Below, piece by piece: positions 563 through 33,007 of a DNA stretch of 64,000 nt. How positions within the stretch are numbered: the first letter of the stretch is position 1; each line of letters starts with the position of its first letter. This stretch comes from an uncultured Gammaproteobacteria bacterium (GTDB lineage Bacteria; Patescibacteriota; Microgenomatia; Levybacterales; UBA12049), in contig OZ246394.1 in NCBI GenBank assembly GCA_965230895.1, positions 833,955 to 897,954 of the forward strand. Direction: 5' to 3'. The position numbers were made by a program, and so were the translations under genes. The notes under the pieces were generated by a model that saw nothing but the letters and a program-made list of their open reading frames with translations, was not told the DNA's origin and searched no databases.

Positions 563-2020
563 TCAATTTACCTGGAGGATTGTTTCTTCGTCATTTACCT
601 TTATTTCTTTAAATGTATTCGCTGGTGCAGTTGCCTTAAATGCTGTTACATCACTTGTTTTACCATAAATCCACTTAAGCTTTTTCTGCTGCACTCTCGC
701 CAATATTTCTGCTCTAGTAATCCAAAATTGCTCAGTTGAAAGTGTCCCATCTGGTGAAGATAAGATTGTACGATCTGTATAATAAACTGCCGAAGGATAT
801 AAATGATCTAACCGTACAACTGTTTCGCCCGGAGATGTAATTTGATTTATCTTTTTTGCACTTTCAGTCTGGTTTACATTTGCATACGTATCAATAATTG
901 GAATTATATTAATAGTATACGTTCTGTAGGATAACACTGCCGTAATTGCTACGAGAACAATTGCAACTAAAAGATTAATTTGCTTTTGTTTTACAAGCTT
1001 TAAGGCATGATACGTTCCATATGCAATAAGTAATGACCAGAATGGAGTTGCTGGAACCAGATACCAATTATTACTACGTTCAGTAAAACTGAGCTGCGCC
1101 AACAATGCCCCTCCATAAAGTAAAAGTAAAAATGCTTTTGGATCTTTGATATAACGAATTGCAAAAAGAACACCAATGATAAGGATCACTACAAACCGTC
1201 GCTGCAATGAATAATAGGTATAGAGGAAATAATCAGGATTTGCATATTGCAAGCTCACAGTTGCTACACCGTGATCTGCATGAAAGAGAAAATAATTTGC
1301 AAATTCAATCCCGTCCTTGAGTGAACCTCCGATAAGCCAAATTGCAGGCAGAGCAATCATCGCTCCAAACATCTTCAAATATTCAGGGATATTCTTTAGG
1401 ATATTTTTTCTCTCATAGAAGAGTTCATGCAAAACAAAAATAAGTATCGGGAAGAATACTAATTGCGCCCGGGTTAAATAAAGTAGCCCAAAGAGCAACC
1501 CCAGAATAATATACTTGTATTTATGCTTACTTACTTGTACAAGAAAAGCCAGAAGGATTAATAACGTTGGCAGGATATCAATATTCCCACTTCTCATTCT
1601 CCAAACAAATAAATTATTTAGTGCAAGTGTCGCAAACGCCAAAAATGCAGGGACAAACCCATAATTTTTATATGCAAACCACAACACCAACATTAGAACA
1701 GCCACTCCAGCTATCGCAGAAGGAACGCGGACGGAAAGCTCAGAAAGTCCGATGACACTTGAAACAAGGGCAGATAACCACATATAAAGCGGAGGTTTAT
1801 CGAACCACACGGCATTATTCCAATACAGCACAAAAAACTCTTTCGTTTGCAACATATGTCGAGTTGCATCTGCATACCATGCTTCATCCCAGTTTTCTAA
1901 AGGAGATTTGCCTAATTGATAAAAGGCAATGTAGAGAGAAAACAAAAACGCACAAGCAAAAAAGAATTTAATAATAAGAGGAAAATACTTTGACTTGTGT
2001 AGAGTTTTCGCCTGCTTCAC
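563..2020 (-). CDS. GT-C fold membrane glycosyltransferase, family 39 / PMT-ArnT-like
   Basis: About 11 predicted TM helices. The first extracytoplasmic loop carries the acidic motif (ENWDEAWYADATRHM…FDKPPLYMWL) typical of PMT_2/ArnT-type GT39/GT83 enzymes. Confidence 0.6.
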   Translation of the reverse strand: MKQAKTLHKSKYFPLIIKFFFACAFLFSLYIAFYQLGKSPLENWDEAWYADATRHMLQTKEFFVLYWNNAVWFDKPPLYMWLSALVSSVIGLSELSVRVPSAIAGVAVLMLVLWFAYKNYGFVPAFLAFATLALNNLFVWRMRSGNIDILPTLLILLAFLVQVSKHKYKYIILGLLFGLLYLTRAQLVFFPILIFVLHELFYERKNILKNIPEYLKMFGAMIALPAIWLIGGSLKDGIEFANYFLFHADHGVATVSLQYANPDYFLYTYYSLQRRFVVILIIGVLFAIRYIKDPKAFLLLLYGGALLAQLSFTERSNNWYLVPATPFWSLLIAYGTYHALKLVKQKQINLLVAIVLVAITAVLSYRTYTINIIPIIDTYANVNQTESAKKINQITSPGETVVRLDHLYPSAVYYTDRTILSSPDGTLSTEQFWITRAEILARVQQKKLKWIYGKTSDVTAFKATAPANTFKEIKVNDEETILQVN

Positions 2021-2068
2021 TACTTAAGAATAGCATAAGCTCTATGAACTTGGTATAGTAAATATAGA

Positions 2069-2512
2069 ATGAAAAAGCAACTCAAACATAATCTTCATTT
2101 GATAGATAAGAAGCTTCGCTTTAGACTGAGAATTTATTTCATCATCGCACTTGCTTTGATATTGGTACTGCTCTTTAATGTCATTCGTGGTGCATTACGA
2201 ATTGATTTTGGATTATTAGGGCTTATGGCCGGAACAGGTGTTGGGATAATCGCTTCGAGAATGTTTCATACTTCCTGGGATAAAAATGCCAAACAAGTCA
2301 TTAGTAGGATCGACACATTTGGCGTTGGAATCCTTTTACTTTATATTGTTTTCGAGATTTTACGTGAGGATATCGTGAAGGTCTTTACAGGAGACGTACA
2401 AGTAGCTACGACGGGTTTTGCTGTATTGGCTGGAATGATGCTAGGACAACTCATTGGTATGCGAGGGAAGATCATTGAAGTCCTCAAAGAGCAAAAGGTA
2501 TTTGGGAAATAG
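2069..2512 (+). CDS. small 4-TM membrane protein, hypothetical
   Basis: ORF with hydrophobic helices; no recognisable motif. Confidence 0.4.
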   Translation: MKKQLKHNLHLIDKKLRFRLRIYFIIALALILVLLFNVIRGALRIDFGLLGLMAGTGVGIIASRMFHTSWDKNAKQVISRIDTFGVGILLLYIVFEILREDIVKVFTGDVQVATTGFAVLAGMMLGQLIGMRGKIIEVLKEQKVFGK

Positions 2513-2575
2513 TTGACCTATACCACAGCTTTAATTCACCACTTTTTTCTGTCATAATAATCTAAACTATTATTT

Positions 2576-4576
2576 ATGGAAAAAGACGCCAGTGCAAAAC
2601 GATTACAAATGCTTGATGGGATACGCGGCATCGCAATCGTTCTTGTTTTCCTTAACCATGTAGAATTTCCCTTCTCTACACAATTCCTCCATCCTTTAAT
2701 TGCCCAAATGCTTTTTTCAAGTGGCGTTACTGGAGTCTCACTTTTATTTATCCTTTCAGGATTTTTGATGGCATATATTTATCCAAATCCTTCAAGTTAT
2801 AGCCAGTTCCTCCAAAAACGTTATACAAGAATTTTCCCACTCTTCCTTACGATGTCTACAGTCATGCTCTTTTATAAAGTCTTCCCTGAAATGGCGTGGT
2901 ATCTGAAGGCATTGCTTATTCTTGGTTTATCTCTTGGCGTGCATGCCATCTGGGTCTATGGAATCAAGAAAATTGCATCGACACTTTTGAGTAAATTACT
3001 CTTTTATGCATTCGTGGCACTACAGATTTTTGCTGCGCTTTTCTACACACTTTGGATCATGAGACAACCTCCTATTGTCCTCAACCAACAGCTTCCTGAG
3101 ACTTTAAGAAATGGCATCATTTGGCTTACCAATGCTACATTAACCTTACCTTTCGGGACATATATACCTCAACTTGATGGTGTATATTGGAGTCTCACAT
3201 CTGAAATACTTTTTTATGTTGTATATCCAATCATCTGCGTACCATTAATTGGTCTGATGATCAAAAAGAATAGGACCACAAAGATACTTGTACTGTTGGC
3301 ATTGATTCCATTTTTTGCTGGACTCCAAACACTCTCGCAACGGGTGTATGGTTTTGGTATTTTGCAATTTCAACTTTTTTACTATTTCATCTGCGGTATC
3401 ACCCTTGCGTACCTCTACCGAAATCATACAAATATTTTTGACTGGTTAGGAAAGCTCTTCTCAAAGAAAGTACAATTCTTAACAGTACTTCTTTTCCTTA
3501 CTGCCATTTTTGCGAAGACACTTATTTTTGACCAGAAGGCCCAATCACTTGATGTCTGGATACACATTCTTTGGGCTATTCCATTTGGTTTGGTAATCGC
3601 ACTAGCCTTATCAGATAAAACAATGCTTTCTAAGTTTTTGTCTTCAAAGATTCTTGTTTTTCTAGGAACCATAAGCTTTTCTATCTACCTAAGTCATATT
3701 CCTATTGGATTGATCATCAAACAAATCTTTCAACCCACAGATGTCTTTACAAATATCGTCTATGCGTGTCTTCACTTTGGAATGACAGTATTGGTTTCAA
3801 TGCTTCTCTATTACCTTCTTGAACGTCCGTACTTTATGAGAAGAAATGTGAACTCTATCAAGTCTGACACTAAGAAAAAATTGCAAACGGTTATCACTCC
3901 GAAAAAAGCATATTGGACACTGGCTACAATTTGTCTTGTCCTCATTATTGCGATTTTTAATTCATATCAATCAAGCTTTAACTTCTTTTCAAAGGAATAT
4001 GCAATTGATAAATCCACAATAAATCCAGCATCGCTGAGAGAAAGTACTGTTATTTCAATGAGAGAAAATCCGCGAGTTACCGTAGAATTTGTATCTCCAG
4101 ATGATAATCTACAAGTCCTCACAGTAAATGTGGGAGAACAGATTGACGCATCTAATAAAGATCGCAGACAAATATTTACTTTCAAAATTAAAGAAGCTGG
4201 TGCAAAAGACTGGTATGCGACAAATACATATAATCTCGATACGCCTATCGCAAGTGTAAATCACCCTCTTGGATTCCCTACTATTAATAACGCGAAAGGC
4301 AAGAAATATCTCGTCGAATTCAGTGTTGTCTATCCAAGTTCTGGGAAAAATGTCCTGCTCAATACAACACCCACAATGATGTCCAATGTAGTCCCGGTCG
4401 ATAAAAAGAAACTTCTTTCAAACCCGGTAGAATTTATTCTGTTTCTTGAGAATAAATTACAAAATATCTTCAGAAATGATGAGGCAAAAAGAGTACTGAC
4501 GCTCCTTTCACCATTTTTTATAATCACTCTCTATCTTATTTTCAGCGGAATATTTGGTAAAAGAATCAAACAATAA
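2576..4576 (+). CDS. acyltransferase family 3 (OafA/YrhL-like O-acyltransferase) with ~250-aa non-SGNH C-terminal domain and terminal TM helix
   Basis: N-terminal LDGIRGIAIVLVFLNHV motif and ~10 TM helices typical of Acyl_transf_3. The C-terminal soluble domain plus a final TM helix matches the 19700..21658 product. Confidence 0.7.
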   Translation: MEKDASAKRLQMLDGIRGIAIVLVFLNHVEFPFSTQFLHPLIAQMLFSSGVTGVSLLFILSGFLMAYIYPNPSSYSQFLQKRYTRIFPLFLTMSTVMLFYKVFPEMAWYLKALLILGLSLGVHAIWVYGIKKIASTLLSKLLFYAFVALQIFAALFYTLWIMRQPPIVLNQQLPETLRNGIIWLTNATLTLPFGTYIPQLDGVYWSLTSEILFYVVYPIICVPLIGLMIKKNRTTKILVLLALIPFFAGLQTLSQRVYGFGILQFQLFYYFICGITLAYLYRNHTNIFDWLGKLFSKKVQFLTVLLFLTAIFAKTLIFDQKAQSLDVWIHILWAIPFGLVIALALSDKTMLSKFLSSKILVFLGTISFSIYLSHIPIGLIIKQIFQPTDVFTNIVYACLHFGMTVLVSMLLYYLLERPYFMRRNVNSIKSDTKKKLQTVITPKKAYWTLATICLVLIIAIFNSYQSSFNFFSKEYAIDKSTINPASLRESTVISMRENPRVTVEFVSPDDNLQVLTVNVGEQIDASNKDRRQIFTFKIKEAGAKDWYATNTYNLDTPIASVNHPLGFPTINNAKGKKYLVEFSVVYPSSGKNVLLNTTPTMMSNVVPVDKKKLLSNPVEFILFLENKLQNIFRNDEAKRVLTLLSPFFIITLYLIFSGIFGKRIKQ

Positions 4577-4614
4577 GATAGCTGTTATGATACTATTATA
4601 GTGATTCGTAATTC

Positions 4615-5109
4615 ATGAAACGAAACAAGATCTTACTTACTCTTGGCATTTTCCTCCTCTTTTTCCTCGTTGGTGGAGCAACATTTTATTTCTTCGGGCA
4701 AGATATCATGCAATGGTTTGGACCAAAAGATACCAATGTTCCTGGAGGAGCAATTTCAAAAAACGAACCTTTAAAAAAGTGCATCCCTGGAGATAAAAAT
4801 TGCGAAACAAAGAATGATAAAATCATGGCAAACAGACTTGAAGGCCCTGTGGCGAAATTCGTTTCGCATCAATGCGATGGACCAAGAGGATGTCCATCTC
4901 CGACCGATGAAGAAGAAAAAGTGATCGTAAATGCTATCCGAGCATATGTAAAAGATGATACGTTGGAGCTCATACCGATAAATGGTATCACTCCTACAGG
5001 AATAGCATACTATTGCGCAGCAGATAATCGTTGCTGGAGTTATGATACAAAATCTAAAAAAGTAGAGGCATTAAGTACAGAAACTCTTGCTCCTTCGAAT
5101 ACTCAGTAA
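4615..5109 (+). CDS. hypothetical signal-anchored Cys-rich extracytoplasmic protein
   Basis: N-terminal hydrophobic anchor and 8 Cys in the soluble part. Confidence 0.4.
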   Translation: MKRNKILLTLGIFLLFFLVGGATFYFFGQDIMQWFGPKDTNVPGGAISKNEPLKKCIPGDKNCETKNDKIMANRLEGPVAKFVSHQCDGPRGCPSPTDEEEKVIVNAIRAYVKDDTLELIPINGITPTGIAYYCAADNRCWSYDTKSKKVEALSTETLAPSNTQ

Positions 5110-5119
5110 TCATTCCTCA

Positions 5120-6808
5120 TTATTCTTTTGGAGATTCTACGAGTATATATGCAGATTCTGCATATGGGTAAGATATCACCTTCTCATTTTCAGGTAAGAC
5201 AATATTTCTTGTCGGATAAGAAAACTCTTTCAAAACAGCCTTCCCTGCTGCACTATCTTTATCAGTAACGAATAATGTTTTCTTCGATGTAGGATACTTA
5301 TCCCAATTAATTTTCTCAAATCGATATTTGCCTATCTTTTCAGCTGTTAATAAAAGTCCATCTTCTTTGTAGGAAACATTTTTATGATAGATCTCCGGAT
5401 GAAATTTTGTATAAAACACTAATCCTGTATAGGAGAAATCTGTTTTAGGGTCAATAATAATTGCGTCATATTTGCCTTCGTTTGCAGCCAGATATTTACT
5501 CAACTCTGATTCTTGAGAACGCCATATTTTTGCCTGATTGATAGGGAAAACAAAGAAATATGTCACCATGTATGTTAGCACCGCATATGAAACAACAAAG
5601 ATTGATAATATTTGTAATCCCCGTTTAAAAATCAGCTGCTTAACTTTAGTTATGTATTCCCATGCACTTACTGCACCATATGCGGAAAATACAACAAGAG
5701 GGATAACTTGCAAGAAACTTCTCGTTGGATGTGGTACTTCTTGAGTCATGGCAATTACTGCAACCTCAAGTACAAACCATAGGAAGAAAAAGAGAAGGAA
5801 TTTCTCTCTCCTTTTCCATGCAGTCGCGAATCCGATTACTAACGTTATTAATTCAAATATATAGAAGAGTCCATGACCAGCCACTCCGTTTACAGTCTTT
5901 GGTCCAGCCAAAAAGAAAAAATCAATTGAGAATGAGTGGATGAGATTTTTGCAATATTCCCAGATGACAAGCAAATATGAATTGAAAATAAGTTTGGTGA
6001 AAACCTCAGGCAAAAGTACTAAATAGCTTCGGAATTCCATATGTTGCGTCTTAATGAATGGACCATTAAGGAACAGCCCAGATGTCTGATCAACTGTTTT
6101 AGCCATAGAAAGTGTGGCAATAAGAAAAGGCAGCAATGTGACGAAACTAAGTACTATACCAGTAATCTTTGTTGTCACTGACCATCGCGCTATATCTTTA
6201 TAGTGAATTGCTATTAACAAAAGTACTAAAATTGGTGCCATTAGTCGTGTAACATTGTATGCATAGAGGGATAATCCAAAAGCAAAAATGGATATTATCA
6301 AGAACCATATATTTCCTTTTTTCTTTATAGCTAAAGTAAAAAATAGCGATCCTAATAATGCCAAAGATGTTGCTACATTTACCTCAAATCCAGTCCTCGA
6401 AAAGAAAAACTGCCATGGATTGAAAGCCAAGAATAGAGCAGAAGCAACAGCAAAATCATTCCTTTTGGAAGTAATTTTAACTAAAAAGAATAATGAGATG
6501 ATCGCAATTATTCCAAATAACGCGGATGGTAAACGTACAGCAAAAGGTGTAACTCCAAAAACTTTTTCTGATGCAGCAGTTAGATAGATATAAACAGGCA
6601 ATTTATTATCATTAAAGGATTTAAAATATAAAGGGTACGAAACACTATGTTCATCTTTGCCTGTTTCGAGGATAGAATATGCGTTATACCCAATACCAGA
6701 TTCGTCTTTATTGAGGCCTGCAGGTATTGACCCGAGTTGATAAAAGCGGAGAAATAAACTAACACCAAAGAGGAGAACAATAAAAGCTATAAGAAGTTTT
6801 TTTACCAT
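5120..6808 (-). CDS. GT-C fold membrane glycosyltransferase, GT39/PMT family (4-amino-arabinose/mannosyltransferase-like)
   Basis: RFYQLGSIPAGLNKDESGIGYNAYS…LPVYIYL…FAVRLPSALFG matches the PMT_2/ArnT N-terminal signature. Multiple TM helices and a C-terminal soluble domain. Confidence 0.7.
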   Translation of the reverse strand: MVKKLLIAFIVLLFGVSLFLRFYQLGSIPAGLNKDESGIGYNAYSILETGKDEHSVSYPLYFKSFNDNKLPVYIYLTAASEKVFGVTPFAVRLPSALFGIIAIISLFFLVKITSKRNDFAVASALFLAFNPWQFFFSRTGFEVNVATSLALLGSLFFTLAIKKKGNIWFLIISIFAFGLSLYAYNVTRLMAPILVLLLIAIHYKDIARWSVTTKITGIVLSFVTLLPFLIATLSMAKTVDQTSGLFLNGPFIKTQHMEFRSYLVLLPEVFTKLIFNSYLLVIWEYCKNLIHSFSIDFFFLAGPKTVNGVAGHGLFYIFELITLVIGFATAWKRREKFLLFFFLWFVLEVAVIAMTQEVPHPTRSFLQVIPLVVFSAYGAVSAWEYITKVKQLIFKRGLQILSIFVVSYAVLTYMVTYFFVFPINQAKIWRSQESELSKYLAANEGKYDAIIIDPKTDFSYTGLVFYTKFHPEIYHKNVSYKEDGLLLTAEKIGKYRFEKINWDKYPTSKKTLFVTDKDSAAGKAVLKEFSYPTRNIVLPENEKVISYPYAESAYILVESPKE

Positions 6809-10214: not shown

Positions 10215-11087
10215 TTATAGTTTTATTTGTGTCAATACTTTAATTCTCTCTTCAATGGGAGGATGTGTTGATAAAATGCGCTCGACGAAGTCTTTGGATT
10301 TAAAAGGGTTAGAAAAATATAAATGAGCTGTGGAATGAGATGCATTTGGTAACGGCAACTGATCACGACTAATCTTATCTAATGCAGAAATAAGGTGTTT
10401 TGATCGACCTACCATACGAGCTCCTAATGCATCTGCTGCATATTCTCTCTTTCTGGAAACAGCAAGCTTAACAAGTGAAGCACTAATTGGAGCAATCAAG
10501 GCAAATACCATTCCTACCATAGCCATGGCTCCAGATCGATCCTGATCTGCTGCGGTATTAACAATTGATGCTCTCCAATACATATCTGCAATTATTGAAA
10601 TAATACCCGCTAGCGCAGTTGCAATGGCAAGGATCTTCATATCTGAATTCTTAATATGAGCGATTTCGTGAGCAATAACACTTTCAACTTCTTTCTCAGT
10701 TAGCTTTTCAATAAGTCCTCGAGTGACAACGACTGAAGCATGTTTTTCATCTCTACCTGTAGCAAAAGCATTCATAGCATCCTCGTCTATATAATAAATT
10801 TTAGGCATGGCGAGATTATTCGTTTTACAAAGGTTTCCTACTATTTTATAAATTTCTGGTGCTTGTCTCTTGGAAATACTGATAGCCCGTGTTGAAGCAA
10901 TTACGAGCTTGTCAGAGTAATAATATGCTATTAAATTAATTACAGCAGCAATAAGTAAAAAGATACCTGTTCCAGAAAGACCTAAGTTAAAATTACTCGA
11001 AATAATATACCCGAGGATACCTACAGCTGCAGTGAGAGCAGCCATATATAGGTATGAACGAAGAAAATCTATTGAAACAATTTTCAT
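10215..11087 (-). CDS. htpX: zinc metalloprotease HtpX (peptidase M48)
   Basis: HEIAHIKNSDM HExxH motif, two N-terminal TM helices and M48 architecture. The start is taken at MKIV (ATG 11085-11087) rather than the ORF-track start at 11123. Confidence 0.8.
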   Translation of the reverse strand: MKIVSIDFLRSYLYMAALTAAVGILGYIISSNFNLGLSGTGIFLLIAAVINLIAYYYSDKLVIASTRAISISKRQAPEIYKIVGNLCKTNNLAMPKIYYIDEDAMNAFATGRDEKHASVVVTRGLIEKLTEKEVESVIAHEIAHIKNSDMKILAIATALAGIISIIADMYWRASIVNTAADQDRSGAMAMVGMVFALIAPISASLVKLAVSRKREYAADALGARMVGRSKHLISALDKISRDQLPLPNASHSTAHLYFSNPFKSKDFVERILSTHPPIEERIKVLTQIKL

Positions 11088-11094
11088 GTTTGGG

Positions 11095-11123
11095 ACTATA
11101 GCATAACAATAAGAGCATGTCAA
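11095..11123 (-). promoter_or_regulatory. sigma70-like promoter (TTGACA-17-TATAGT) placing the htpX ATG ~7 nt after the -10, i.e. a likely leaderless mRNA
   Basis: Minus-strand TTGACAtgctcttattgttatgcTATAGT lies immediately upstream of the MKIV start. Confidence 0.4.
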
Positions 11124-11254: not shown

Positions 11255-11671
11255 CTATTCACTTAAGAAGTAGAAATCTAATTTTAAACTTGCATTAAGA
11301 CTAGTAATATCTTTTAAGATTTTTTTATCCAAATTAATATATGGATCAAAGTCCGTATAAAGAAGAGTTGACCGAAATTGAGTGTTATATTTTTGAGTTA
11401 ACTCCTGCAGACTATTCTTATGTGATAAGAGTTTAATAAGTAAATGCTCCAAATGATTTTCTATTGGTTCATTTGCATCAAGCTCAGAACTCAAAATCCA
11501 TACATTTTCTTTTATTTTTATTTCAGCTTGAGTTTTCCCTTTTGGCCCTGATCTTTTCAAATCACCTTTTATCCAAGTCTCTGTAGGTTCAATTCCTATT
11601 TTATTTGATATTTCTTGTGGAGAAAAATTGAAACCATATATCTCAAAACTTACTTTCGTATCATTTTTCAT
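11255..11671 (-). CDS. small cytoplasmic protein directly downstream of the RHS toxin gene, a candidate cognate immunity protein (DUF4279-like pattern)
   Basis: Position and orientation are typical of toxin-immunity pairs. VSFEIYGFNFSPQEISNKIGIEPTE…LDFYF resembles DUF4279-type small proteins as I recall them. Confidence 0.4.
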   Translation of the reverse strand: MKNDTKVSFEIYGFNFSPQEISNKIGIEPTETWIKGDLKRSGPKGKTQAEIKIKENVWILSSELDANEPIENHLEHLLIKLLSHKNSLQELTQKYNTQFRSTLLYTDFDPYINLDKKILKDITSLNASLKLDFYFLSE

Positions 11672-11693
11672 ACAATAATTATAACATAAATTT

Positions 11694-14600
11694 CTAAAGG
11701 TTCTTAATATTTATGTTTAATTGATCGGGTTCACCCTTACCGCTTAGTGGTTTTAGGAAGAGTTCTCCAGTATCATCTTTATATATATCTACACCAGATT
11801 GTTGACCTTTAAGATCGTGGATATCAAAGCCTGCTTTCTTTAGCATTTCTATTTCTCCTGAGTTTAATCTCTTCATTTGTGCAGATGCGTTAATTGCATC
11901 AGTTGCATTAAGAATTTTTCCTGCTTTAATTCCTTTTGCTGCAAGTTTAACTTCGCCAAATATAAAGCTTGCACCAATATCAAAACCCGCACCTCCTTTG
12001 TCAGCTAAACTTGAATTTGGATTTCTTAGAGTATTAACAGCTTCTCTATATAATGAGTTATATATTGCTGTAGCTTGTGGTTTTAATACATCCCTTCCTC
12101 CACTCGTATCTTTCTGAGGCTGATTGTTACCTGCACCTGTATTGTAAACGCTATTGTTAATGGAACCATTTTGAATAGATTTTGTCACAACCACATAATT
12201 ATAATAAGTTGCTGTAGTAGGCTTTTGATAATACGCATTCAAAGCTTGATTATATTTAAGAATTTCGTTCACATGTCCAGACGGATCAGTGTACTTAACA
12301 GGATTATTTTGGACATAGGAATAACTATTTAACGTTTGTGGCTCATATACGTTTTTTACAACAAGATCTGGTTGCGTAAACCTCCTCATGTCTGAACTAT
12401 AGTATCGGGCATTATAATAATTCAGTCCTGTCTCACTATCCTTCTCCTGTCCTGTATATTGGAACTTACTCTTCCCTCCACCAGACTTCACCACACCCCA
12501 AGGATCATATGAAGTTTCTTCAGACACAGATCCTCCAGAGTTAGTTAACAAACTCGCAGATCCGAGATGGTCATTTTGATAGTAGAACCTGTTACCACTG
12601 TTATCTCTCTTTGAAAGAAGCTCTCCATTGACCCAGTAATATGCAGTATTCTGTGCAGAACCTCCTACTGGAGTCTTGGTCTCATATCCATCACTCCATG
12701 AGACCACAGTATTTGCGAGAGTCCCAGTGACATAATTCTTCTTCACCATACGGAGACCGTTGTAGTCATAGACATACTCAGCAATAGTATGACTGTTCCC
12801 ACACTCTTTAACTTTAGACAACTGATTTGCTTCATTATATTCATAACATTTCGTCCCATCAGACGTTAAATTCCCATTCGCATCATACGCATATACTGGA
12901 TGCCAGACATTGAAATTATCAAATATTGCTGATGTTGTAGAGGCTTCAGAACTCCATGTACCTACTTGCTGACCGACAATCATCGATGACACAGGGAAAG
13001 GATTGGCGACAGATGCGAAATTACTCCATGTTCCACCATCAGCTGAAGTATCAAAGTACGTCGTACCAGCTGATTCACGTATGCGGAACCATTTATGGAC
13101 AGCTGGATTATAATCATCCTGTGCCAACCAATTAGATGTGCCATTTACTTTTTTGTACGCTCGGATCTTATTTTCTCCGATAAAGAAGAAGAATTGGTTG
13201 GAATTATCTCCATCGACAATGGTGTAGAGTGGGAAGACTTCCCATGAACCTAATGATTGATTCCCAGCATTCACTACCTGCGTAACCACTGAAGAGTTCG
13301 TAAGGTTGTATGCATTACTACTATCAATGCCATAATATCCACCACCTGCGTTACTTGTCGCTGTGAATTGCTGTGCAGAAACAGTCGCGTTGCTTCCACC
13401 CCAGTTCACCCATCTTCCACTATCTATACTTCCCGTACTCCAGTCGTCTACCAAAGTAGCAGTCGGTGCACTCGCATAATTGAAATTATCAAATGTTGCA
13501 CTTGTCGTGGATCCTTCGCTACTCCATGTACCGACTTCTGAACCGATAACCATTTCTGTCACAGCAAATGGATTTGCAACTGATGCAAAATTTGTCCATG
13601 TCGTGCCATTTGCTGAAGTATCAAAATACGTTGTGCCACCAGATTCTCGGATACGGAACCATTTGTGGACTGCAGGATTGTAGTCATCTTGAGCAAGCCA
13701 ATTAGAAGCACCATTTACTTTCTTGTATGCACGAAGCTTGCCCTCTCCGATAAAGAAGAAGAATTGGTTGGAGCTATCGCCATCAATATATGCATATATC
13801 GGATAGACTTCCCAGGATCCGATGCTTTGATTGCCTGCATTGACGACCTCATTGACGATTGAAGAACTCGTCAGATCATACAACTTACCATTTACATCAC
13901 TATCAACTCCATAATATCCACCGCCTGTTGTACTTGTCATTGCAAGTTGATTGCTAGAGACTGTGACTTGTCCACCACCCCAAATATTCCACTTCGTACT
14001 ATTAATAGTCCCAGATGACCACGTGTCAAAAAGTGATGATGTCAAAGGTGTACCAGATCCATTTACATGAGGAGGAGCTACTTTCTCAGTTGACGAAGTC
14101 ATCGCATGGACTTTGCCGTTGGCACCATATCCATAATCAGTATCTACTCCACTATCAGTGAATTTAGTCAGATTACCAATGGAGCTATACTGATATGCAT
14201 AATTGTATCCTGCGGATTCTGAAGCAGTTTTTAGTCGATCAAGATCATCATAGGTAAATGTCTGCGTTTTACTATCTACTGCATCTGTAATACTTGCAAC
14301 GTTACCCACATTATCATAGGCATAGTTCAAGTCTTGCAGACTGCTTGTCTGAATTCTATTTAATCGGAAGTCATTGGTATTGTATGTATAATTCGTCGTT
14401 AATCCATTGTTGAAATTCTTCTGTGTAATCTTCCCCAACGCATTGTAATTCACATTGCTGACGACATTACTGACCGATTCAATCTCTCCCTGATTATTGT
14501 ACGTATTGGTAATAACTTCACTGTCAGGATTTGTTTGTGTTCTGACTCGATCCATCGGATCATACGCAAATTGTGTCGTCTTGGTGACACCACCGACAGT

Positions 14601-17600
14601 TCTGGCTTCCGCAGTTTTGCGAAGAAGATTGTCATAGGTGTAGGAAACACTTCCCGCAGCATCAGTCACACTCGTTAATGTCCCTTTCCTGCTATTCCCA
14701 TCATAGGTGTAGACGACATCAGTATTTGTAGGATAATCTGTCTTCTTGAGTCGATTAATCTCATCATAGGTCTTTACAACTTGCACATCTCTGTTGTCGG
14801 TTTGTTTTGTGAGATTGCCCACTGCGTCATATTCATATTCCCACGTTCCCATGTCAGGATCAGTCATAGATGTTTTACGACCCAAAGCATCATAGGTAAA
14901 AGTAATATCATTGTCTTCATCGTCTGTAATTTGCATTAATAAATCTCGTGAATCATATGCATATGTTGTTTCATATGTTGCTGCGTCATTTACTTCCTCA
15001 ACTTTGACAATCTTATCGAATGCATTTTTATATTCTTTCTTTACGTTACCATTTTCATCAGTTGTTGTTTCTTTCCAGTGGTCATAGGCAATTGTTTTAT
15101 TGTCACCTTTTGGATTGGTAATTGTTACAGGTCTTCCAATTGCATCATATGTTGTTTGTGTATTTCGGATACCACTTAATGGATTTCGATAATAATCATA
15201 GCTATCATCTTCATGTGGAACAGTCACTTTATTGACTTGCCCAGTCGAATCATAATAGGTATTTGTCACGATTTGTTTTGCTGAGGATGTAGCTTCTGCT
15301 TCTGTTCGTGTCGAAATAGTTCGTCCCAGTCCGTCGATCCATGTATATGTATCAAGCGTTGCAGAGGAAGAACCAGTATTTTCTTTCTTTGAAACAAGTG
15401 TCCCATCTACTCCAGCGGTGTAATAGGTGTATTTTGTTGTTGGATAGGTACTGTTATCACCTGGTTTTATCTCTTTGGTAAGCCTTCCATAGACATCATA
15501 TTCATAATCTGTGGTATTACCATTTGGATCAGTTTTGTAGAGAAGATTTCCGGTTCCCAAATCATAATGGACATAGGTTTCATGGTCTTTAGCGTTCATG
15601 CTAAAAGTAGGATATGTTCCTGTCGTATCATAATTTGTGTATGTATAATGTCCATTCGCGTCCTCAACTTCTGTCTGATTTCCAAAAGAATCGTACGTGT
15701 AATTTGTCGTCGGATCGGTCGTAAACAAACCATCAGTCCACTTTACTTCTTTGGTCAAATTACCTTTTGATGGAGCATCACCTAATCCAGAATGTGAATC
15801 ATAATAGAATGAAGTTTCACTTATTTTTGTCGAATCATTTGATGCTTTGAGTGTCGTCTTTTTGGCTGTATTGACGATCCAATCAGTTGTATTGTACGTA
15901 TATTCATTATATGTATAACGCTCGTCCCCACTAACTCCTGTGTCTCCCAATTCAGATTTCTTTGTCACGTTGCCATAACTATCATATTCAAAGTTTGTTT
16001 GCTTTATCTTTGGATTACTAGCTGAGCCATCATAGGTTAAGATTTTCTCTTCTGTTTGTTTCGTCACGGTTACACCATTTGTCGTTGTATAACTCCATGT
16101 TGGCTGCGTCTCACGATATGGATTGTTTGAGCTATCACGTTCTTGCAGCTCACTCAACTTCCCTGTAAGCGTTTCATATTGATGGAAGACATATTTTTTC
16201 TTTGATCCATTTGGCTCAACTGTATTGACGATAGAAAATCCCTGGAACTGTTTAAGATTATGGTCATAAAATCCATCTTGATAACTATATGTTGTGACAT
16301 CATTTGTTTCTTGATCATTGTCCAAACCGTTATTGACAGTCATTTTAGAAACAACCCATACAGGGAAAGAGAGATCAGATTTACTGTCACTACCCGTATT
16401 GTCATAAATTGTTGATGGCTTATATTCAAAATTAACTACTCCGCCTCTATCTGTTGTTACTTGTTTAAGAAGATGAGGAGCATTTCCGTTATTTTTATAA
16501 ACCTTCCATGATGAAAAATCTCCCTTCACAATATCAGGGAGCCCATCACCAGTAACATCAGTCAATTTTGTTTTATTATCATTAGCATTTATATCAACAT
16601 TTGCAGAATACTCTATCCAATTGTCCCATTGATCTGTCCAATGATCGCCCCTACTGACGAGAACCTTCCATCTATCAGCTCCACCTGGATCCTGATTTTC
16701 GTTCCTGACAATATCAATAAGCCCATCCCCATTAGCGTCAGATATTGTCGATTGAGGCTCTTGGAAATGTGCATTGACGGAATAATCAAGCCATATTGTA
16801 AAGCCCCTGAACCCGCTACCAGTATTGAGCCAAACATACCACGTAGCCCAATTGCCATCGTAAACAGTACGGACAACATCTGATATACCATCATTATTTA
16901 CATCAATCAAACGTACTTGAGGACTTCCAAGTCCTGCTGGCATATTTGTTCCATCAACCCAAACATCACGAGTAGTACTCCAACCTGATCCAGTATTTTT
17001 AAATACTTCCCACTGATAACCTCCGTTATTTGCTTTTGTATGGACGATATCAGGAAGTCCATCTCCGGTCATATCAGCTAAAGTGACATCATTCTCTCGA
17101 AGTTTTATAGATCCATCAACACCACTAAGATTCGTCCAATTTTCAGCTGTAGTATTCCAACTAGTACCAGTATTCCTAAATACTTGCCATACATCTGCAT
17201 CAGGAGAACGAACAATATCCGGTAAATTGTCCCCTGTTACATCAATCAATCGTACATACGGAGTGAATTGTGGATCCAGTCCAGCATTTATACCAGCATT
17301 AGTCACCCAATTTGTCCATTGAGTTGGCCATGAGGTTCCCGTATTTATTAAGACTTTCCATGTAAAGTTAATACCTCCATTAAAATCTGTTCCAACCACA
17401 TCCATATAACCATCACCATTTACATCTGACAAAGTGACATTATCTTGCCCTAAATTAAGATTTATATCTTGATTAATCCATGTCTCAGGCGTGGCATTCC
17501 AGCTTCGAGGCTCATTATTATATTCGAAAGAGGTGGTTAAGTAATTAGATCTATCATCGCCTTTCTCAATTATAGAAGTTAAAAGTGGTTGATTACTGAA

Positions 17601-18491
17601 AGTCGGTGTGTAATTCAAATCATACTCTCTGACAAGATCCTCTCCTATGTATACTTCTATATTGTCAAGATTATTGGGATCAAACATGTAACAACCTTGA
17701 ACGAACACTGGACGTGTATAGCCATGTGCAGGGTTGGAACTTCCACTATCTACATAATGAAATTTGATAATACGGGATTGATCGTTGTTATATTTGATTC
17801 TTTCCAGATAGGACCACCCATACGTCTCACCATATGTATAATAAATCTTATTACTATTGGTATCTGTCACAAGGTCGAGATTCCACATGGTAACAAAATC
17901 ACGATCATTACATTCTCGTTCTGATTGCGATTCATAACCGAAACGGTACTTCGTCCCATCTGGTGTGGTCACAACCCAATACTCACCTTTGACATTAGAC
18001 CCCCCAGTAAGCTTTTGAATTTTCAAATAAGATTCTATCTTTGTATGGTACAAACCGTCTGAAGATACATACACAAGTTCATATACCGCACCTTTGAAAT
18101 ATAATTTAAATTTATCATCGCTTGTATTGGTCGGAGTTCCGTTAACGTCACGCTGAATATACTGCTGGTTTAGAAGCCATCCAATACCAGAGTTCATTTT
18201 CATATCCCTCAAACCTGTACTACTATAATTTATTGAAACTTCAGGTGTTAGATCATTGGTACCTTTTGGAACTTTTATTGGATAAGAATAATTCGCAGAA
18301 CCAGTAAAGATATCAGTCGTAAATCTATCACGTTGATATTTTGGTTCTGTAGTATTTTGGATAGAATAATCAGCAAGTATATCACCGCCCCCAGAAAAGA
18401 GAAGAGCAAAAGAACCAAGGAAACCTAAAGCTAACTTTAATTTAAACGAATGCATATGGTAGTAGGGACAGCTACTATCGATACTCAACAC
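11694..18491 (-). CDS. secreted RHS/YD-repeat polymorphic toxin, TcB/TcC-fusion-like, with SpvB-type N-domain, FG-GAP-like repeats, YD shell, RHS core and a variable C-terminal toxin domain
   Basis: Signal peptide, with the probable ATG start at 18455. SpvB-like GSANYSYPIKVPKG…INYSS…GIGWLL, then six or more DxxGDGxxDxV repeats. Dozens of YD repeats follow (YTYDALGRKT, YEYDAVGNLT…). The core ends in NPVKYTDPSGH (~12273), followed by an unassigned ~190-aa tail. Confidence 0.85.
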   Translation of the reverse strand: MLSIDSSCPYYHMHSFKLKLALGFLGSFALLFSGGGDILADYSIQNTTEPKYQRDRFTTDIFTGSANYSYPIKVPKGTNDLTPEVSINYSSTGLRDMKMNSGIGWLLNQQYIQRDVNGTPTNTSDDKFKLYFKGAVYELVYVSSDGLYHTKIESYLKIQKLTGGSNVKGEYWVVTTPDGTKYRFGYESQSERECNDRDFVTMWNLDLVTDTNSNKIYYTYGETYGWSYLERIKYNNDQSRIIKFHYVDSGSSNPAHGYTRPVFVQGCYMFDPNNLDNIEVYIGEDLVREYDLNYTPTFSNQPLLTSIIEKGDDRSNYLTTSFEYNNEPRSWNATPETWINQDINLNLGQDNVTLSDVNGDGYMDVVGTDFNGGINFTWKVLINTGTSWPTQWTNWVTNAGINAGLDPQFTPYVRLIDVTGDNLPDIVRSPDADVWQVFRNTGTSWNTTAENWTNLSGVDGSIKLRENDVTLADMTGDGLPDIVHTKANNGGYQWEVFKNTGSGWSTTRDVWVDGTNMPAGLGSPQVRLIDVNNDGISDVVRTVYDGNWATWYVWLNTGSGFRGFTIWLDYSVNAHFQEPQSTISDANGDGLIDIVRNENQDPGGADRWKVLVSRGDHWTDQWDNWIEYSANVDINANDNKTKLTDVTGDGLPDIVKGDFSSWKVYKNNGNAPHLLKQVTTDRGGVVNFEYKPSTIYDNTGSDSKSDLSFPVWVVSKMTVNNGLDNDQETNDVTTYSYQDGFYDHNLKQFQGFSIVNTVEPNGSKKKYVFHQYETLTGKLSELQERDSSNNPYRETQPTWSYTTTNGVTVTKQTEEKILTYDGSASNPKIKQTNFEYDSYGNVTKKSELGDTGVSGDERYTYNEYTYNTTDWIVNTAKKTTLKASNDSTKISETSFYYDSHSGLGDAPSKGNLTKEVKWTDGLFTTDPTTNYTYDSFGNQTEVEDANGHYTYTNYDTTGTYPTFSMNAKDHETYVHYDLGTGNLLYKTDPNGNTTDYEYDVYGRLTKEIKPGDNSTYPTTKYTYYTAGVDGTLVSKKENTGSSSATLDTYTWIDGLGRTISTRTEAEATSSAKQIVTNTYYDSTGQVNKVTVPHEDDSYDYYRNPLSGIRNTQTTYDAIGRPVTITNPKGDNKTIAYDHWKETTTDENGNVKKEYKNAFDKIVKVEEVNDAATYETTYAYDSRDLLMQITDDEDNDITFTYDALGRKTSMTDPDMGTWEYEYDAVGNLTKQTDNRDVQVVKTYDEINRLKKTDYPTNTDVVYTYDGNSRKGTLTSVTDAAGSVSYTYDNLLRKTAEARTVGGVTKTTQFAYDPMDRVRTQTNPDSEVITNTYNNQGEIESVSNVVSNVNYNALGKITQKNFNNGLTTNYTYNTNDFRLNRIQTSSLQDLNYAYDNVGNVASITDAVDSKTQTFTYDDLDRLKTASESAGYNYAYQYSSIGNLTKFTDSGVDTDYGYGANGKVHAMTSSTEKVAPPHVNGSGTPLTSSLFDTWSSGTINSTKWNIWGGGQVTVSSNQLAMTSTTGGGYYGVDSDVNGKLYDLTSSSIVNEVVNAGNQSIGSWEVYPIYAYIDGDSSNQFFFFIGEGKLRAYKKVNGASNWLAQDDYNPAVHKWFRIRESGGTTYFDTSANGTTWTNFASVANPFAVTEMVIGSEVGTWSSEGSTTSATFDNFNYASAPTATLVDDWSTGSIDSGRWVNWGGSNATVSAQQFTATSNAGGGYYGIDSSNAYNLTNSSVVTQVVNAGNQSLGSWEVFPLYTIVDGDNSNQFFFFIGENKIRAYKKVNGTSNWLAQDDYNPAVHKWFRIRESAGTTYFDTSADGGTWSNFASVANPFPVSSMIVGQQVGTWSSEASTTSAIFDNFNVWHPVYAYDANGNLTSDGTKCYEYNEANQLSKVKECGNSHTIAEYVYDYNGLRMVKKNYVTGTLANTVVSWSDGYETKTPVGGSAQNTAYYWVNGELLSKRDNSGNRFYYQNDHLGSASLLTNSGGSVSEETSYDPWGVVKSGGGKSKFQYTGQEKDSETGLNYYNARYYSSDMRRFTQPDLVVKNVYEPQTLNSYSYVQNNPVKYTDPSGHVNEILKYNQALNAYYQKPTTATYYNYVVVTKSIQNGSINNSVYNTGAGNNQPQKDTSGGRDVLKPQATAIYNSLYREAVNTLRNPNSSLADKGGAGFDIGASFIFGEVKLAAKGIKAGKILNATDAINASAQMKRLNSGEIEMLKKAGFDIHDLKGQQSGVDIYKDDTGELFLKPLSGKGEPDQLNINIKNL
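12910..14065 (-). repeat. tandem in-frame duplication (2 x ~570 bp) inside the RHS gene, encoding two ~190-aa β-sandwich/lectin-like modules
   Basis: ccgataaagaagaagaattggttgga occurs at 13177 and again at 13747. The protein copies SGTINSTKWNIWGGG…FFFFIGEGKLRAYKKVNG…TFDNFN and SGSIDSGRWVNWGGS…FFFFIGENKIRAYKKVNG…IFDNFN are ~70% identical. Confidence 0.8.
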
Positions 18492-19699: not shown

Positions 19700-21658
19700 T
19701 TATTTTTTTCTTTTTAGATATTCCTGCAATGGAATGAGGAGTGTTAGTATACTAACAAAAACAACGGCGAAAACAAAATGAAGATTTGTAAATACAAAGA
19801 GTATTCTATTTGCTATGTAGTGAATTGGATTATGTAATAGGTTGTTTCTCGAATTCGCATAAACACTGACCATACTGGTTGAGGAAGAATCAATAAATAT
19901 CTGATCATGTTCTTCTCCATCAGTTAATGACAACTCTAACACATACTTCTTATTGTCTGATTGAGGGAGCTTTTCCGCCAACTCAAACTTTAATATCTGT
20001 GAATTTTCGAGATTATATGCTTTCTCATCATATTGTTCTAATAGCTTACCGTTGCTATCAAATAGTCTCGCATGTACATATGCTTTCTTTTCTTTCTCTG
20101 GCCCTGGCCTGTCGACACTATCAACATACCGAATACGTGCTGACATTTCTTCTAAATCATTTTCTTTTGCTGTAAATGGTATTTTCAAATCTGATTTTAG
20201 TAGTGATATTTCACCAGCAGATGATTGAAGCATATGCCGGTGCAATAACTGAGTGGCCGAATAATTCCCAGAATATAGTAAGAATAAAACTAGCATAACG
20301 GAGACAGAGATAATTATCGATTTTCGAGAGAAAGTATATGGGTCGCCTTTGCTTTTTACTTTTATATCTTTTCGCGAAGGCTTACTCAAAAAGTATTGCC
20401 TTTCAACAAAATAGAAAAGAACCCATGCTATTATCACAGAAGAAGCAAGTGCGATAAAAAATAAAAGTAATTCAGAAGGGATATACGGAGGAAGTATTTG
20501 TTTCATCGCATTCATAAACGACTTAAGCCATTCACCAATATGTGCATGAATAAGATAAAGCGAATAACTAATCAGACCTAGAGAGACAAAAACCTTTTTA
20601 CTAAAGATACTATATATAATAGTACGAGTATTAATTGCTGTGAGAACAACAAATGCAATAATCCAACTTGATATGAGGTAATAAAGGTTCATTCCATAGA
20701 CACTTTGTCCATAACGTATATTTGCATCTCCCCACTGTATGAAAATAAGTAAAAATAAGCCGATGAACCCGATAATAGGATTACTGACAATTGGTTCTAA
20801 TTTCTTCCAAATAGTTCCTTGCGATTGATAGATAACTCCAATCACTACACCAGCAACAAAACCACTTGTCCTAGCAATATTCATACTTTGTAAAGCAGCG
20901 ACAGAAGCAACTGCATAATCCAAATCGAATAAAATTTTCGTTACACCAAGAACAATACAAATACCCAGAATTACTCCAAATCGTTTTGCTAAAAAGATAA
21001 GTGGTATAACAATAAATGGATACACAATGTAAAAAAGTATTTCCGGAGCTAGACTCCAAAATACTGCTCCTAATCTAGGTATTTCTTTTGCAAATGGTGT
21101 CGTTAATGTGAGATTAGAAAGTAATAGTACGTAGTCTTTCAAAAGCGGAGAGAGAGTTGCTTCATGATAAATGTTTGGTGTTATAAAGAGATTAAAAAGT
21201 AACATCCCAACTTGCAGTGAAATAAAGATCCAAAAAATCCACTTCCCTATTTTCCCAGCATTGGATGATGTACGTAAAAAATTCCACCCATAATAGACAA
21301 GCAATGTTACACAGGTAAGGATACATAAGCTAATATAATATGGGATCGTTGGATCTAAAGAGATGAACCAAAGCGCAAAAACGATTACAGCATAAACTGG
21401 AAAAATTCGCAGATACCGCTTCTGAATAAATTTTGCTGCATGAGGGATAGATGGGTACAGCAGAGCCATTAAAAAACCCGACAATACAAAAAGAATTTGT
21501 ACAGCATTTGATCCTCCAGAAAAAACATCAAATATTGTGATGAAAATTGGATGTGGAAAAAGTACTGGAAGTGAATATCCGATATGTGTCAGTACAACCG
21601 ATAATGCAGCAAAACCTCGTAGACCATCGAGTGCAGGTAATCTATTATTCACTCGCAC
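19700..21658 (-). CDS. acyltransferase family 3 protein with C-terminal soluble domain and terminal TM (paralog of the 2576..4576 product)
   Basis: LDGLRGFAALSVVLTHI N-terminus and ~10 TM helices. The C-terminal domain architecture is the same as in 2576..4576. Confidence 0.7.
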   Translation of the reverse strand: MRVNNRLPALDGLRGFAALSVVLTHIGYSLPVLFPHPIFITIFDVFSGGSNAVQILFVLSGFLMALLYPSIPHAAKFIQKRYLRIFPVYAVIVFALWFISLDPTIPYYISLCILTCVTLLVYYGWNFLRTSSNAGKIGKWIFWIFISLQVGMLLFNLFITPNIYHEATLSPLLKDYVLLLSNLTLTTPFAKEIPRLGAVFWSLAPEILFYIVYPFIVIPLIFLAKRFGVILGICIVLGVTKILFDLDYAVASVAALQSMNIARTSGFVAGVVIGVIYQSQGTIWKKLEPIVSNPIIGFIGLFLLIFIQWGDANIRYGQSVYGMNLYYLISSWIIAFVVLTAINTRTIIYSIFSKKVFVSLGLISYSLYLIHAHIGEWLKSFMNAMKQILPPYIPSELLLFFIALASSVIIAWVLFYFVERQYFLSKPSRKDIKVKSKGDPYTFSRKSIIISVSVMLVLFLLYSGNYSATQLLHRHMLQSSAGEISLLKSDLKIPFTAKENDLEEMSARIRYVDSVDRPGPEKEKKAYVHARLFDSNGKLLEQYDEKAYNLENSQILKFELAEKLPQSDNKKYVLELSLTDGEEHDQIFIDSSSTSMVSVYANSRNNLLHNPIHYIANRILFVFTNLHFVFAVVFVSILTLLIPLQEYLKRKK

Positions 21659-31154: not shown

Positions 31155-31763
31155 CTACTTTTCTACTAATTTCGAATATATCACGTGTCTATCCGAATAT
31201 CCGTTTTCTTTATTCCAATCACCATCACATGTGATGAGATTAAGCATTGGGGCTGAAGCATTACCAAAAACCTTTTCTATAGGAAATTCTTTATTTGGAT
31301 ATTTCTCAGAATCTGTGACTTCAAATGTCCAATCCTTTCCCTTGTCATCAGTTACAATTATTTCGTCTCCAACTTTCAACTTTGCTAAGTCCCAGAATAC
31401 AGCAGCTGTTCCATCTTTTTTATCATAATGGCCGGCAAGAACAGCATTTCCGTTCATTCCTGGTCGAAACCCTGGATTATACCAAGCTGTATTTTCATCA
31501 TTGCTAGGAGTATCCATTCTTCCTTGAGAATCATTTGCTACGGATTCTATTTCCGCATCAACGTTAATTGATGGGATACGAACCTTCTTTGGCAAACCTG
31601 GAAGTGGAGCTTCAGGCTTTTTAGCCAGTTCTTCTTCTGTTTGTTGAGACTGGGTTGAAAGGACTTGTTTGTCATTATCATTTTTGACGAAGTGTGAGGC
31701 AGATGTCCCGATTATTATCCCAGAAACAATAATTACGACTATTGTTACGAGTACTTTTAACAT
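31155..31763 (-). CDS. sortase family transpeptidase
   Basis: N-terminal TM anchor, catalytic His (LAGHY), TLITC-type NLITCDG Cys motif and downstream Arg. Confidence 0.8.
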   Translation of the reverse strand: MLKVLVTIVVIIVSGIIIGTSASHFVKNDNDKQVLSTQSQQTEEELAKKPEAPLPGLPKKVRIPSINVDAEIESVANDSQGRMDTPSNDENTAWYNPGFRPGMNGNAVLAGHYDKKDGTAAVFWDLAKLKVGDEIIVTDDKGKDWTFEVTDSEKYPNKEFPIEKVFGNASAPMLNLITCDGDWNKENGYSDRHVIYSKLVEK

Positions 31764-31871: not shown

Positions 31872-32054
31872 TTAGTTAGCTCTGAGACCAGTTGCTGGTG
31901 CTTCACTTGGCATAGCTGCACTAGTAGTTGGTGTTACAGTTGTCGTGTTGTTTGTTGTGTTTGTTGGTGTTGCTGTTTGTGCAAATGTCATTGTTGCCGC
32001 TGCCATTGCTGAAACTGCGAATACACCTGTTGCGATTACTGCTTTTTTGATCAT
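31872..32054 (-). CDS. small secreted Thr-rich peptide (signal peptide plus ~35 aa) ending in …EAPATGLRAN
   Basis: Strong SD (GGGAGGTG) before the ATG. A cleavable signal peptide, then a T/N-rich mature part. The gene sits first in the operon with the sortase. Confidence 0.5.
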   Translation of the reverse strand: MIKKAVIATGVFAVSAMAAATMTFAQTATPTNTTNNTTTVTPTTSAAMPSEAPATGLRAN

Positions 32055-32976: not shown

Positions 32977-33007
32977 GAAATATGTTTAACAATGTTAAAG
33001 GGAGATG

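Follow-up and report, generated by a model that had tools for sequence, protein, structure and literature searches.

What does a very large rearrangement hotspot (RHS) protein carry at its C terminus, and how could it reach a target, when it is encoded on the chromosome of a small-genome bacterium? The question is raised by a minus-strand open reading frame (ORF) at positions 11694..18491 of a 64-kb stretch of contig OZ246394.1 (assembly GCA_965230895.1), referred to below as the window. A first-pass annotation made from the sequence alone had described the ORF as a secreted polymorphic toxin resembling a TcB/TcC fusion, with an effector domain that it could not assign. Our analysis indicates that this ORF and the small gene that follows it probably form a two-gene toxin-immunity module of the TcdB/TcaC type, similar to the BC component of toxin complex (Tc) toxins, on the chromosome of a Levybacteria-like member of the candidate phyla radiation (CPR/Patescibacteria), with the mechanism proposed below. 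The gene is intact and encodes a large secreted "cocoon" toxin, and domain profiles match the SpvB region, β-propeller, and RHS shell expected of a TcB/TcC-like protein.

The C-terminal tail, which the first-pass annotation estimated at ~190 residues and could match to no toxin fold, measures 192 residues (2062-2253), and the profile search suggested there for it identifies a known toxin domain. Residue numbers here and throughout are those of the 2253-residue product counted from the ATG at 18455, and all features of the gene lie on the minus strand. The last ~62 residues (2192-2253; 11697..11882) match Ntox33 (PF15533) with 58.4 bits when the whole protein is scanned (E 1e-16) and 63.4 bits when the tail is scanned alone (2.8e-17), compared with a curated cut-off of 28.4 bits. 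In the literature, Ntox33 is defined by the motifs [DN]xHxxK and DxxxD and by an H-K-D triad, and both motifs are present in the tail, as DIHDLK (2211-2216) and DIYKD (2223-2227). Searching plasmids with the tail by tblastn retrieved genes annotated as 'polymorphic toxin type 33' in Deinococcus and Pseudomonas amygdali, and the D, H, K, and D residues are invariant in the alignment with these Ntox33 proteins, which spans three phyla. A word-indexed protein search with 140 aa of the tail gave zero matches and missed even the parent protein (P0001), so that an absence of matches in such a search is no evidence of absence for short domains. Ntox33 was listed with 'function unclear' in 2022, when profile and structure searches yielded no relative, and a 2026 review lists it as 'novel fold, unknown'. 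Between the core and the toxin domain, residues 2062-2190 (11886..12272) form a low-complexity linker or pre-toxin region with a guanine-plus-cytosine (GC) fraction of 0.34, no family match in the Pfam scan, and a predicted local distance difference test score (pLDDT) below 50 in an AlphaFold2 model. This low-complexity, unmatched, and predicted disordered segment is what could be expected if the tail were purely structural, an extension lacking a toxic fold of its own, the outcome that the first-pass annotation had named as its refutation. However, with the last 62 residues scoring above the Ntox33 cut-off, carrying motifs conserved across phyla, and followed by an adjacent immunity gene, we consider that explanation extremely improbable.

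The stop codon of the toxin gene is followed, 22 nt downstream, by the adjacent gene at 11255..11671 (-), which encodes a 138-aa protein without a signal peptide that belongs to the DUF4279 family (PF14106, 6e-22). The suggestion that this ORF is the likely immunity gene holds, since DUF4279 is published as the immunity family FdL-Imm5 and FdL-type immunity proteins have been linked to Ntox33. A 2026 study describes a PAAR-Rhs-Ntox33 effector of Salmonella that is partnered by DUF4279 (PMC13304343), and in both Deinococcus and P. amygdali the plasmid Ntox33 gene is followed immediately by a DUF4279 gene. The pairing is therefore evident both from gene order conserved in three phyla and from the literature; it is already published and is not new. 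DUF4279 presumably neutralizes Ntox33. On the P. amygdali plasmid pCOR6617 (L014 3959-4599), a free-standing 75-aa Ntox33 ORF and its DUF4279 gene lie amid insertion sequence elements and adjoin a RelE/Phd module. This free-standing pair indicates that Ntox33 can exist as a minimal cassette of two genes that resembles either toxin-antitoxin pairs or orphan cassettes.

Comparison with sister proteins shows that the tail is exchanged while the body is retained. Three homologues (P0002-P0004) are 69-75% identical to the toxin over 92-94% of the protein but have unrelated tails, none of which matches a Pfam family, and another homologue (P0010) bears Ntox44. The ORFs downstream differ as well: in P0004 a glycine-rich tail is followed by a 111-aa ORF that reads as membrane-spanning, and DUF695 and DUF7674 come after P0008, which is 50% identical. 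Swapped tails and differing downstream ORFs in sister proteins are a signature of selection on toxin function, and the locus joins a conserved body to a C-terminal toxin that varies, with a cognate immunity gene downstream. The GC fraction of the body is 0.38-0.44 (0.41-0.44 in the core and inserts); it drops to 0.34-0.35 for the tail and to 0.28 for the immunity gene, with flanks at 0.36, as cassette exchange would produce. This pattern is consistent with lateral exchange of the toxin-immunity cassette. The change in composition at the core/tail boundary is a sharp step (window 11255-12272).

Upstream of the tail, the protein has the architecture of a secreted RHS shell. Read from the GTG at 18491 the ORF comprises 2265 codons, as originally described. 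The ATG at 18455, 12 codons in (M13), is the likely true start, because public gene calls use it and the N termini of close homologues align there; the gene calls of public assemblies contain an identical 2253-aa product (P0001). From this start the toxin gene would extend over 11694..18455 (2253 codons plus stop). Residues 1-29 (18369..18455) form a predicted Sec-type signal peptide with an n-h-c pattern by sequence reading (MHSFKLK / LALGFLGSFALLF / SGGGDILA↓DY), and the equivalent N termini of the close homologues, aligned from M13, likewise read as n-h-c signal peptides, ending in ..FA↓(D/N)Y, in agreement with the signal peptide noted previously. The SpvB domain (residues 51-209; 17829..18305) matches PF03534 with 40.9 bits and an E-value of 1.8e-10 over a cut-off of 22, and becomes visible only in a separate scan of the N-terminal 327 aa. 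It is followed at approximately residues 330-645 (16521..17468) by an FG-GAP or integrin-like β-propeller. In the Pfam scan five stretches match FG-GAP_3 (PF13517), and six DxxGDxxxDIV blade motifs starting at residues 344, 405, 461, 518, 573, and 633 (span 344-643) fit a six-bladed propeller. A TcdB_toxin_midN region (PF12256, 8.5e-20) occupies residues 625-754 (16194..16583), and the main run of tyrosine-aspartate (YD)/RHS repeats that forms the shell occupies residues 755-1462 (14070..16193), ending in ...YGYGANGKVHAMTS. The repeats match RHS_repeat (PF05593) in 11 stretches (1.6e-33) and YD_repeat_2x (TIGR01643) in six (1.3e-24). The closing part of the shell and the RHS-associated core lie at residues 1853-2061 (12273..12899; TIGR03696, 1.3e-21), and the core ends with DPSGH at residues 2057-2061. 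Each of the regions that the first-pass annotation had recognized by eye, from the SpvB-type N terminus and the FG-GAP-like repeats to the long YD run and the core ending at DPSGH, is thus supported by a family profile.

An aspartyl-protease site near DPSGH, also anticipated by that annotation, has its candidate residues in place. The core motif NNPVKYTDPSGH and the residues R2017 (12405-12407), D2030 (12366-12368), and D2057 (12285-12287) are all present and match the pattern PxxxxDPxG[L/H] with an arginine and two aspartates. R2017 precedes D2030 by 13 residues and D2057 lies within DPSGH; the corresponding protease residues in a solved bacterial teneurin-like protein are R2103, D2116, and D2140. 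From the motif published for RHS and teneurin-like proteins (TLPs), cleavage is predicted directly after DPSGH (12273-12287). An AlphaFold2 model of the C-terminal 1200 aa (residues 1054-2253) is all-β with pLDDT > 90 in the YD part and has a pLDDT of ~90 in the core. Foldseek searches with this model return RHS, Tc BC, and teneurin shells. The half-shell has its best query-normalized template modelling score (TMq), 0.42, with TcdB2-TccC3 (4O9X), compared with 0.15-0.29 for Rhs proteins of type VI secretion systems (T6SS); the Foldseek E-values favor the T6SS Rhs proteins, and the root-mean-square deviations are large. At the sequence level, the best phmmer matches among PDB sequences are bacterial teneurin-like proteins, T6SS Rhs effectors are likewise among the nearest, and Tc BC chains were not retrieved in that search.

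The resemblance to Tc BC raises the possibility that a classical ABC (Tc) toxin directed against eukaryotic cells has this protein as its fused BC subunit, which would work only with a pore-forming TcA subunit encoded elsewhere in the genome. The SpvB, TcdB_toxin_midN, and FG-GAP propeller regions and the TMq to TcdB2-TccC3 speak for this possibility. With TcdB2-TccC3 and YenB/YenC the protein has in common the TcdB_midN region and, by prediction, an RHS cocoon with an aspartyl autoprotease and an encapsulated payload. Unlike Tc BC, it consists of one polypeptide that carries a Sec signal and has lectin-type inserts of its own in the shell, and no TcA is encoded in the window. We scanned ~42 ORFs of the window, including every ORF longer than 300 aa, and found no TcA, T6SS, or type VII secretion system (T7SS) family among them, in line with what the first-pass annotation had reported for the window; because ~19 other ORFs of ≥ 110 aa, all shorter than 300 aa, were left unscanned and the search covered 64 kb, this statement is valid for the window only. 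The payload differs too, with an ADP-ribosyltransferase acting against eukaryotes in Tc BC and an antibacterial-type payload with an immunity gene here. A cytoplasmic cognate immunity protein implies that the producer has the target too, Ntox33 is found in systems that act between bacteria, such as T6SS Rhs effectors and S8-PTS/ABP, and the producer here is a CPR bacterium with a small genome. In view of these points, a BC subunit awaiting a distant TcA seems very unlikely.

The TcdB/TcaC-type polymorphic toxins surveyed by Zhang et al. (2012, PMC3482391) combine a signal peptide, SpvB, an integrin-like β-propeller, RHS repeats, and a variable C-terminal toxin; every one of these defining elements is confirmed here by a profile or, for the signal peptide, by sequence reading and homologous N termini, and as in that class the tails vary and an immunity gene lies downstream. 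In that survey, Ntox33 appears only with type II secretion, with no repeats and no immunity partner, whereas here it is carried on an RHS chassis and accompanied by DUF4279; CPR bacteria are not among the lineages named there, and the twin insert upstream of the core is a further difference. In the Salmonella SPI-19 effector (PMC13304343), Ntox33 is likewise at the C terminus of an Rhs protein with DUF4279 directly downstream, but delivery is by the T6SS through a PAAR N terminus, where the present protein has a Tc BC-like one. The Ntox33 toxins of S8-PTS/ABP systems (PMC9424270, PMC13460014) differ from it in being small Sec-secreted BetaH toxins that occur with an S8 peptidase. Neither PAAR nor BetaH was found in the Pfam scan of the protein. 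Other RHS-shell toxins use the Sec route. Bacillus WapA is a similar Sec-exported RHS-shell toxin of cell-wall-bearing bacteria. BiTLP (PDB 9IFO/9PT5; PMC13018210) is also a Sec-exported RHS-shell toxin, with a self-cleaved and encapsulated polymorphic toxin at its C terminus, a neighboring immunity gene, and adhesion domains. TLPs, however, are built from a superfold of FN-plug, NHL, and YD-shell together with TIP, unlike the SpvB and FG-GAP propeller found here, where no wall anchor was detected. NHL was absent from the Pfam scan at E ≤ 1, a scan in which FN-plug and TIP are not specifically modelled. The protein is accordingly not assigned to the TLPs, because it lacks the NHL/FN-plug superfold, nor to the T6SS Rhs proteins, because it lacks PAAR.

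Between the YD repeats and the core, from ...YGYGANGKVHAMTS at ~1462 to YAYDANGNL at 1855, the shell sequence is interrupted by a ~390-aa insert, a twin arrangement that the first-pass annotation overlooked. It consists of unit 1 (residues 1466-1662; 13470..14060) and unit 2 (residues 1660-1852; 12900..13478), which are 69% identical to one another. Neither unit has a match in the Pfam or NCBIfam models, and a profile of the insert searched against PDB sequences yields just chance-level matches to RET. When a 19-sequence alignment of the units was used for structure prediction, the resulting all-β model had a pLDDT of 93.9 and a predicted template modelling score (pTM) of 0.90. The modelled fold is the curved two-sheet β-jelly roll of the Concanavalin A (ConA)-like lectin/glucanase superfamily, with sequence identity to any enzyme of 5-15%. 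Against 1.84 billion representative proteins, the profile finds 4837 matches at E ≤ 1e-3, each a cluster at 50% identity, and 470 at E ≤ 1e-30. The unit of ~193 aa occurs in many architectures, in 1-8 copies and in proteins of 158 to 2899 aa; one family member (P0249) has a marginal GH43_C2 match (23.1 bits versus a cut-off of 22.7). The units represent a large ConA-like domain family not modelled by Pfam. At the nucleotide level, identity between the two units is uneven, at 0.75-0.82 centrally and only 0.52-0.57 at the N-terminal edge, a pattern that gene conversion between the tandem units could produce, as could tighter constraint on the core strands.

As a variant of the toxin model, the inserts could be glycanases or lyases that open the target wall for the payload. 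Three invariant acidic residues (E139, E182, and D191 in unit numbering) point in this direction, although they are widely separated in sequence. The catalytic strand of glycoside hydrolase family 16 (GH16) has a contiguous ExDxxE signature. GH16 is not supported in the inserts: a contiguous ExDxxE is not conserved in the alignment and PF00722 is unmatched, and glycan binding is favored for the first of these reasons. Low identity to any enzyme adds to the case against catalysis, and similar fold scores come from non-catalytic members of the superfamily, namely the L-type lectins ERGIC-53, VIP36, Emp47p, and peanut lectin and the receptor-binding carbohydrate-binding modules (CBMs) of phages. 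Homologues also carry extra domains at the same site, and their Pfam lists include the PA14 and F5/8-type-C binding domains. An enzymatic role consequently appears doubtful, and the inserts most likely bind, or possibly cut, glycans on the surface of target cells. Two folded domains of 21 kDa together with a tail of 21 kDa are too big for the interior of an RHS shell, as estimated from published shell volumes. There is a precedent for an outward arrangement in the mosquito salivary protein SGS1 (PDB 8FJP), where the Rhs/YD sequence is interrupted by CBM and lectin domains that decorate the exterior of the shell (PMC9935623). SGS1 differs in being eukaryotic, in having a membrane-helix payload, and in placing Ig-like sandwiches in mid-shell, in contrast with the ConA-like units before the core here. 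On the basis of the size estimate and the SGS1 precedent, it is a reasonable inference that the inserts sit outside the shell.

The position of the insert is shared across the family. Among the 120 best homologues, eight join the two flanks directly, for example as ...PHAVTNIGGTSYSYDNNGN in Tenacibaculum, and in ~20 the junction contains 55-695 extra residues, after which come a core and a tail of 174-295 aa. Precomputed Pfam lists of the junction-bearing homologues include PA14, F5/8-type-C, and others, as domains of the whole protein that are not mapped to the junction. In approximately three quarters (about 85-93 of the 120), the N-terminal ~1450 aa with SpvB, propeller, and YD repeats are kept and the RHS core and toxin are missing. 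These proteins, among them P0006, P0007, P0009, P0013, and P0015-P0033 (with locus L009 8001-15323), end after the same junction in extensions of ~50 to 1900 aa. In the sequences that we read, these extensions are arrays of glycan- or surface-binding type (ConA-like units, PA14, F5/8-type-C, and others). The end of a contig cuts off some of the core-less homologues, not all; P0006, whose contig measures 95 kb, has a genuine stop after three ConA-like units and an unrelated ORF next. We considered whether the toxin-less homologues might be split genes and rejected this explanation, since the 251-aa ORF downstream of P0006 is unrelated. In their sources the homologues are named as CPR bacteria, DPANN archaea (Woese-, Pace-, and Nanoarchaeota), Methanosarcinaceae, relatives of Geobacter, and others, and a whole-protein search of the contigs of species-representative genomes returned a 28%-identical Cerasicoccus locus as its sole match. 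The comparison identifies the pre-core insertion point as a hot spot used throughout the aligned family, and the toxin-less proteins are perhaps open shells that act as adhesins.

This distribution suggests another way to read the present copy, as a protein used in the manner of teneurins, primarily as an adhesin on the surface of an episymbiotic CPR cell or for its attachment: the shell and lectin-type domains would fasten the cell to its partner, and the toxin tail would be secondary or serve kin discrimination only. Besides the many relatives without core or toxin and their binding-type arrays, of which P0006 truly stops at the junction, this reading gains from the CPR or DPANN source names of many homologues and from the proposal that bacterial teneurin-like RHS proteins act in cell-cell interaction. 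In the protein studied here, however, the core is intact and the Ntox33 motifs are conserved, and an immunity gene of its own lies beside it; its sisters have swapped tails with different downstream ORFs, and the Pfam scan reveals no cell-anchoring domain or sortase signal in the protein. We therefore regard a primarily adhesive role for this copy as unlikely, and favor the toxin-immunity module.

For that module we propose the following mechanism. The 2253-aa protein would be exported by Sec, given its signal peptide, and by homology the SpvB region, six-bladed propeller, and YD repeats would form a closed RHS shell around the 192-aa C-terminal region. The aspartyl site R2017/D2030/D2057 is predicted to cut after DPSGH, so that the payload would be freed within the shell. 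The Ntox33 payload, with its D-x-H-x-x-K and D-x-x-x-D residues, would be toxic inside bacterial cells, and the cytoplasmic DUF4279 protein would protect the producer. The two external ConA-like domains may recognize target glycans, giving the cocoon its own targeting device in place of TcA, T6SS, or T7SS. Several observations weigh against this scheme. With about three quarters of the homologues lacking core and toxin, the chassis may have a primary role besides toxin delivery. In the bipartite protease motif, the first half is QPD in place of the canonical DPxG, and the two aspartates are 27 residues apart here compared with 24 in the bacterial teneurin-like protein (D2116/D2140). In the 1200-aa AlphaFold2 model the inserts have pLDDT values of 30-80 and the tail values below 50, and the outward position of the inserts is deduced indirectly. 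The scan for partner genes covers 64 kb of a genome with a longest public contig of 1.6 Mb.

The remainder of the window is ordinary chromosome, encoding LonA, an HflX-like GTPase, a UvrA-like ABC ATPase, riboflavin synthase subunits, and two-component systems, along with several PMT_2 glycosyltransferases, acyltransferases, glycoside hydrolases, and one sortase. The closest named homologues of the Lon protein, 94% and 90% identical, are from Ca. Levybacteria/Levyibacteriota, and other close homologues are labelled Saccharimonadales or Patescibacteria. Two PMT_2 glycosyltransferases and two Acyl_transf_3 proteins of ~650 aa flank the toxin locus (563-6808 and 19700-21658), which suggests that the flanking region is devoted to modification of cell-envelope glycans. 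An HtpX-like M48 peptidase gene at 10215..11123 was considered as a possible processing partner of the toxin; this role is improbable, as the gene is absent beside P0008, and the contig of P0004 ends too near the toxin gene to judge whether it is present there. Scans for promoters and terminators around the operon performed no better than shuffled sequences, and the whole 64 kb contains no tRNA gene or Rfam family at threshold. Farther away, a 60-aa ORF at 31872-32054 (-) has by eye a signal-peptide-like start, a Thr/Pro-rich body, and the end ...EAPATGLRAN. It lies directly upstream of the sortase gene on the same strand (31155-31763 (-)), and could encode a small substrate for a sortase, its sorting signal being atypical. 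At 32449-33395 (+), three small ORFs resemble by eye general- or membrane-stress proteins: one of 61 aa rich in Lys, Gly, and Arg, a glycine-zipper membrane protein of 100 aa, and a charged helical protein of 105 aa.

Much of this locus belongs to what is already known, as the chassis class was defined in 2012 and the Ntox33-DUF4279 pair is published; it is mostly ordinary apart from the sugar-binding-type inserts. A limited literature search by title and abstract for polymorphic or Rhs toxins in CPR/Patescibacteria gave incidental matches only. Three aspects appear to be new, as far as we are aware: the combination, within a CPR bacterium, of Ntox33 and a TcdB/TcaC chassis, the family of ConA-like domains, and the modular pre-core site with its toxin-less derivatives. 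Ntox33 is very small (~65-75 aa) and widespread, and the locus provides a further clean toxin-immunity pair. The ConA-like insert family, with about 4800 clusters at 50% identity, is worth curating.

CPR bacteria and DPANN archaea apparently hold many copies of the Tc BC-like chassis, mostly decorated with glycan-binding domains and often without a toxin, and this abundance bears on how episymbionts recognize and treat their partner cells. As a tentative idea, which we think is possible though not the expected outcome, the RHS cocoon of a CPR episymbiont could be a self-sufficient, TcA-independent contact weapon or host-manipulation device, with swappable glycan cassettes before the core, payload swapping, and toxin-less relatives that now serve as adhesins. 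If this idea is true, the cassettes of the pre-core loop, ConA-like here and with PA14 and F5/8-type-C listed in relatives, would redirect the cocoon from one cell surface to another, and the step from toxin to adhesin that CPR bacteria and DPANN archaea would have made would mirror, among prokaryotes, the path taken by teneurins.

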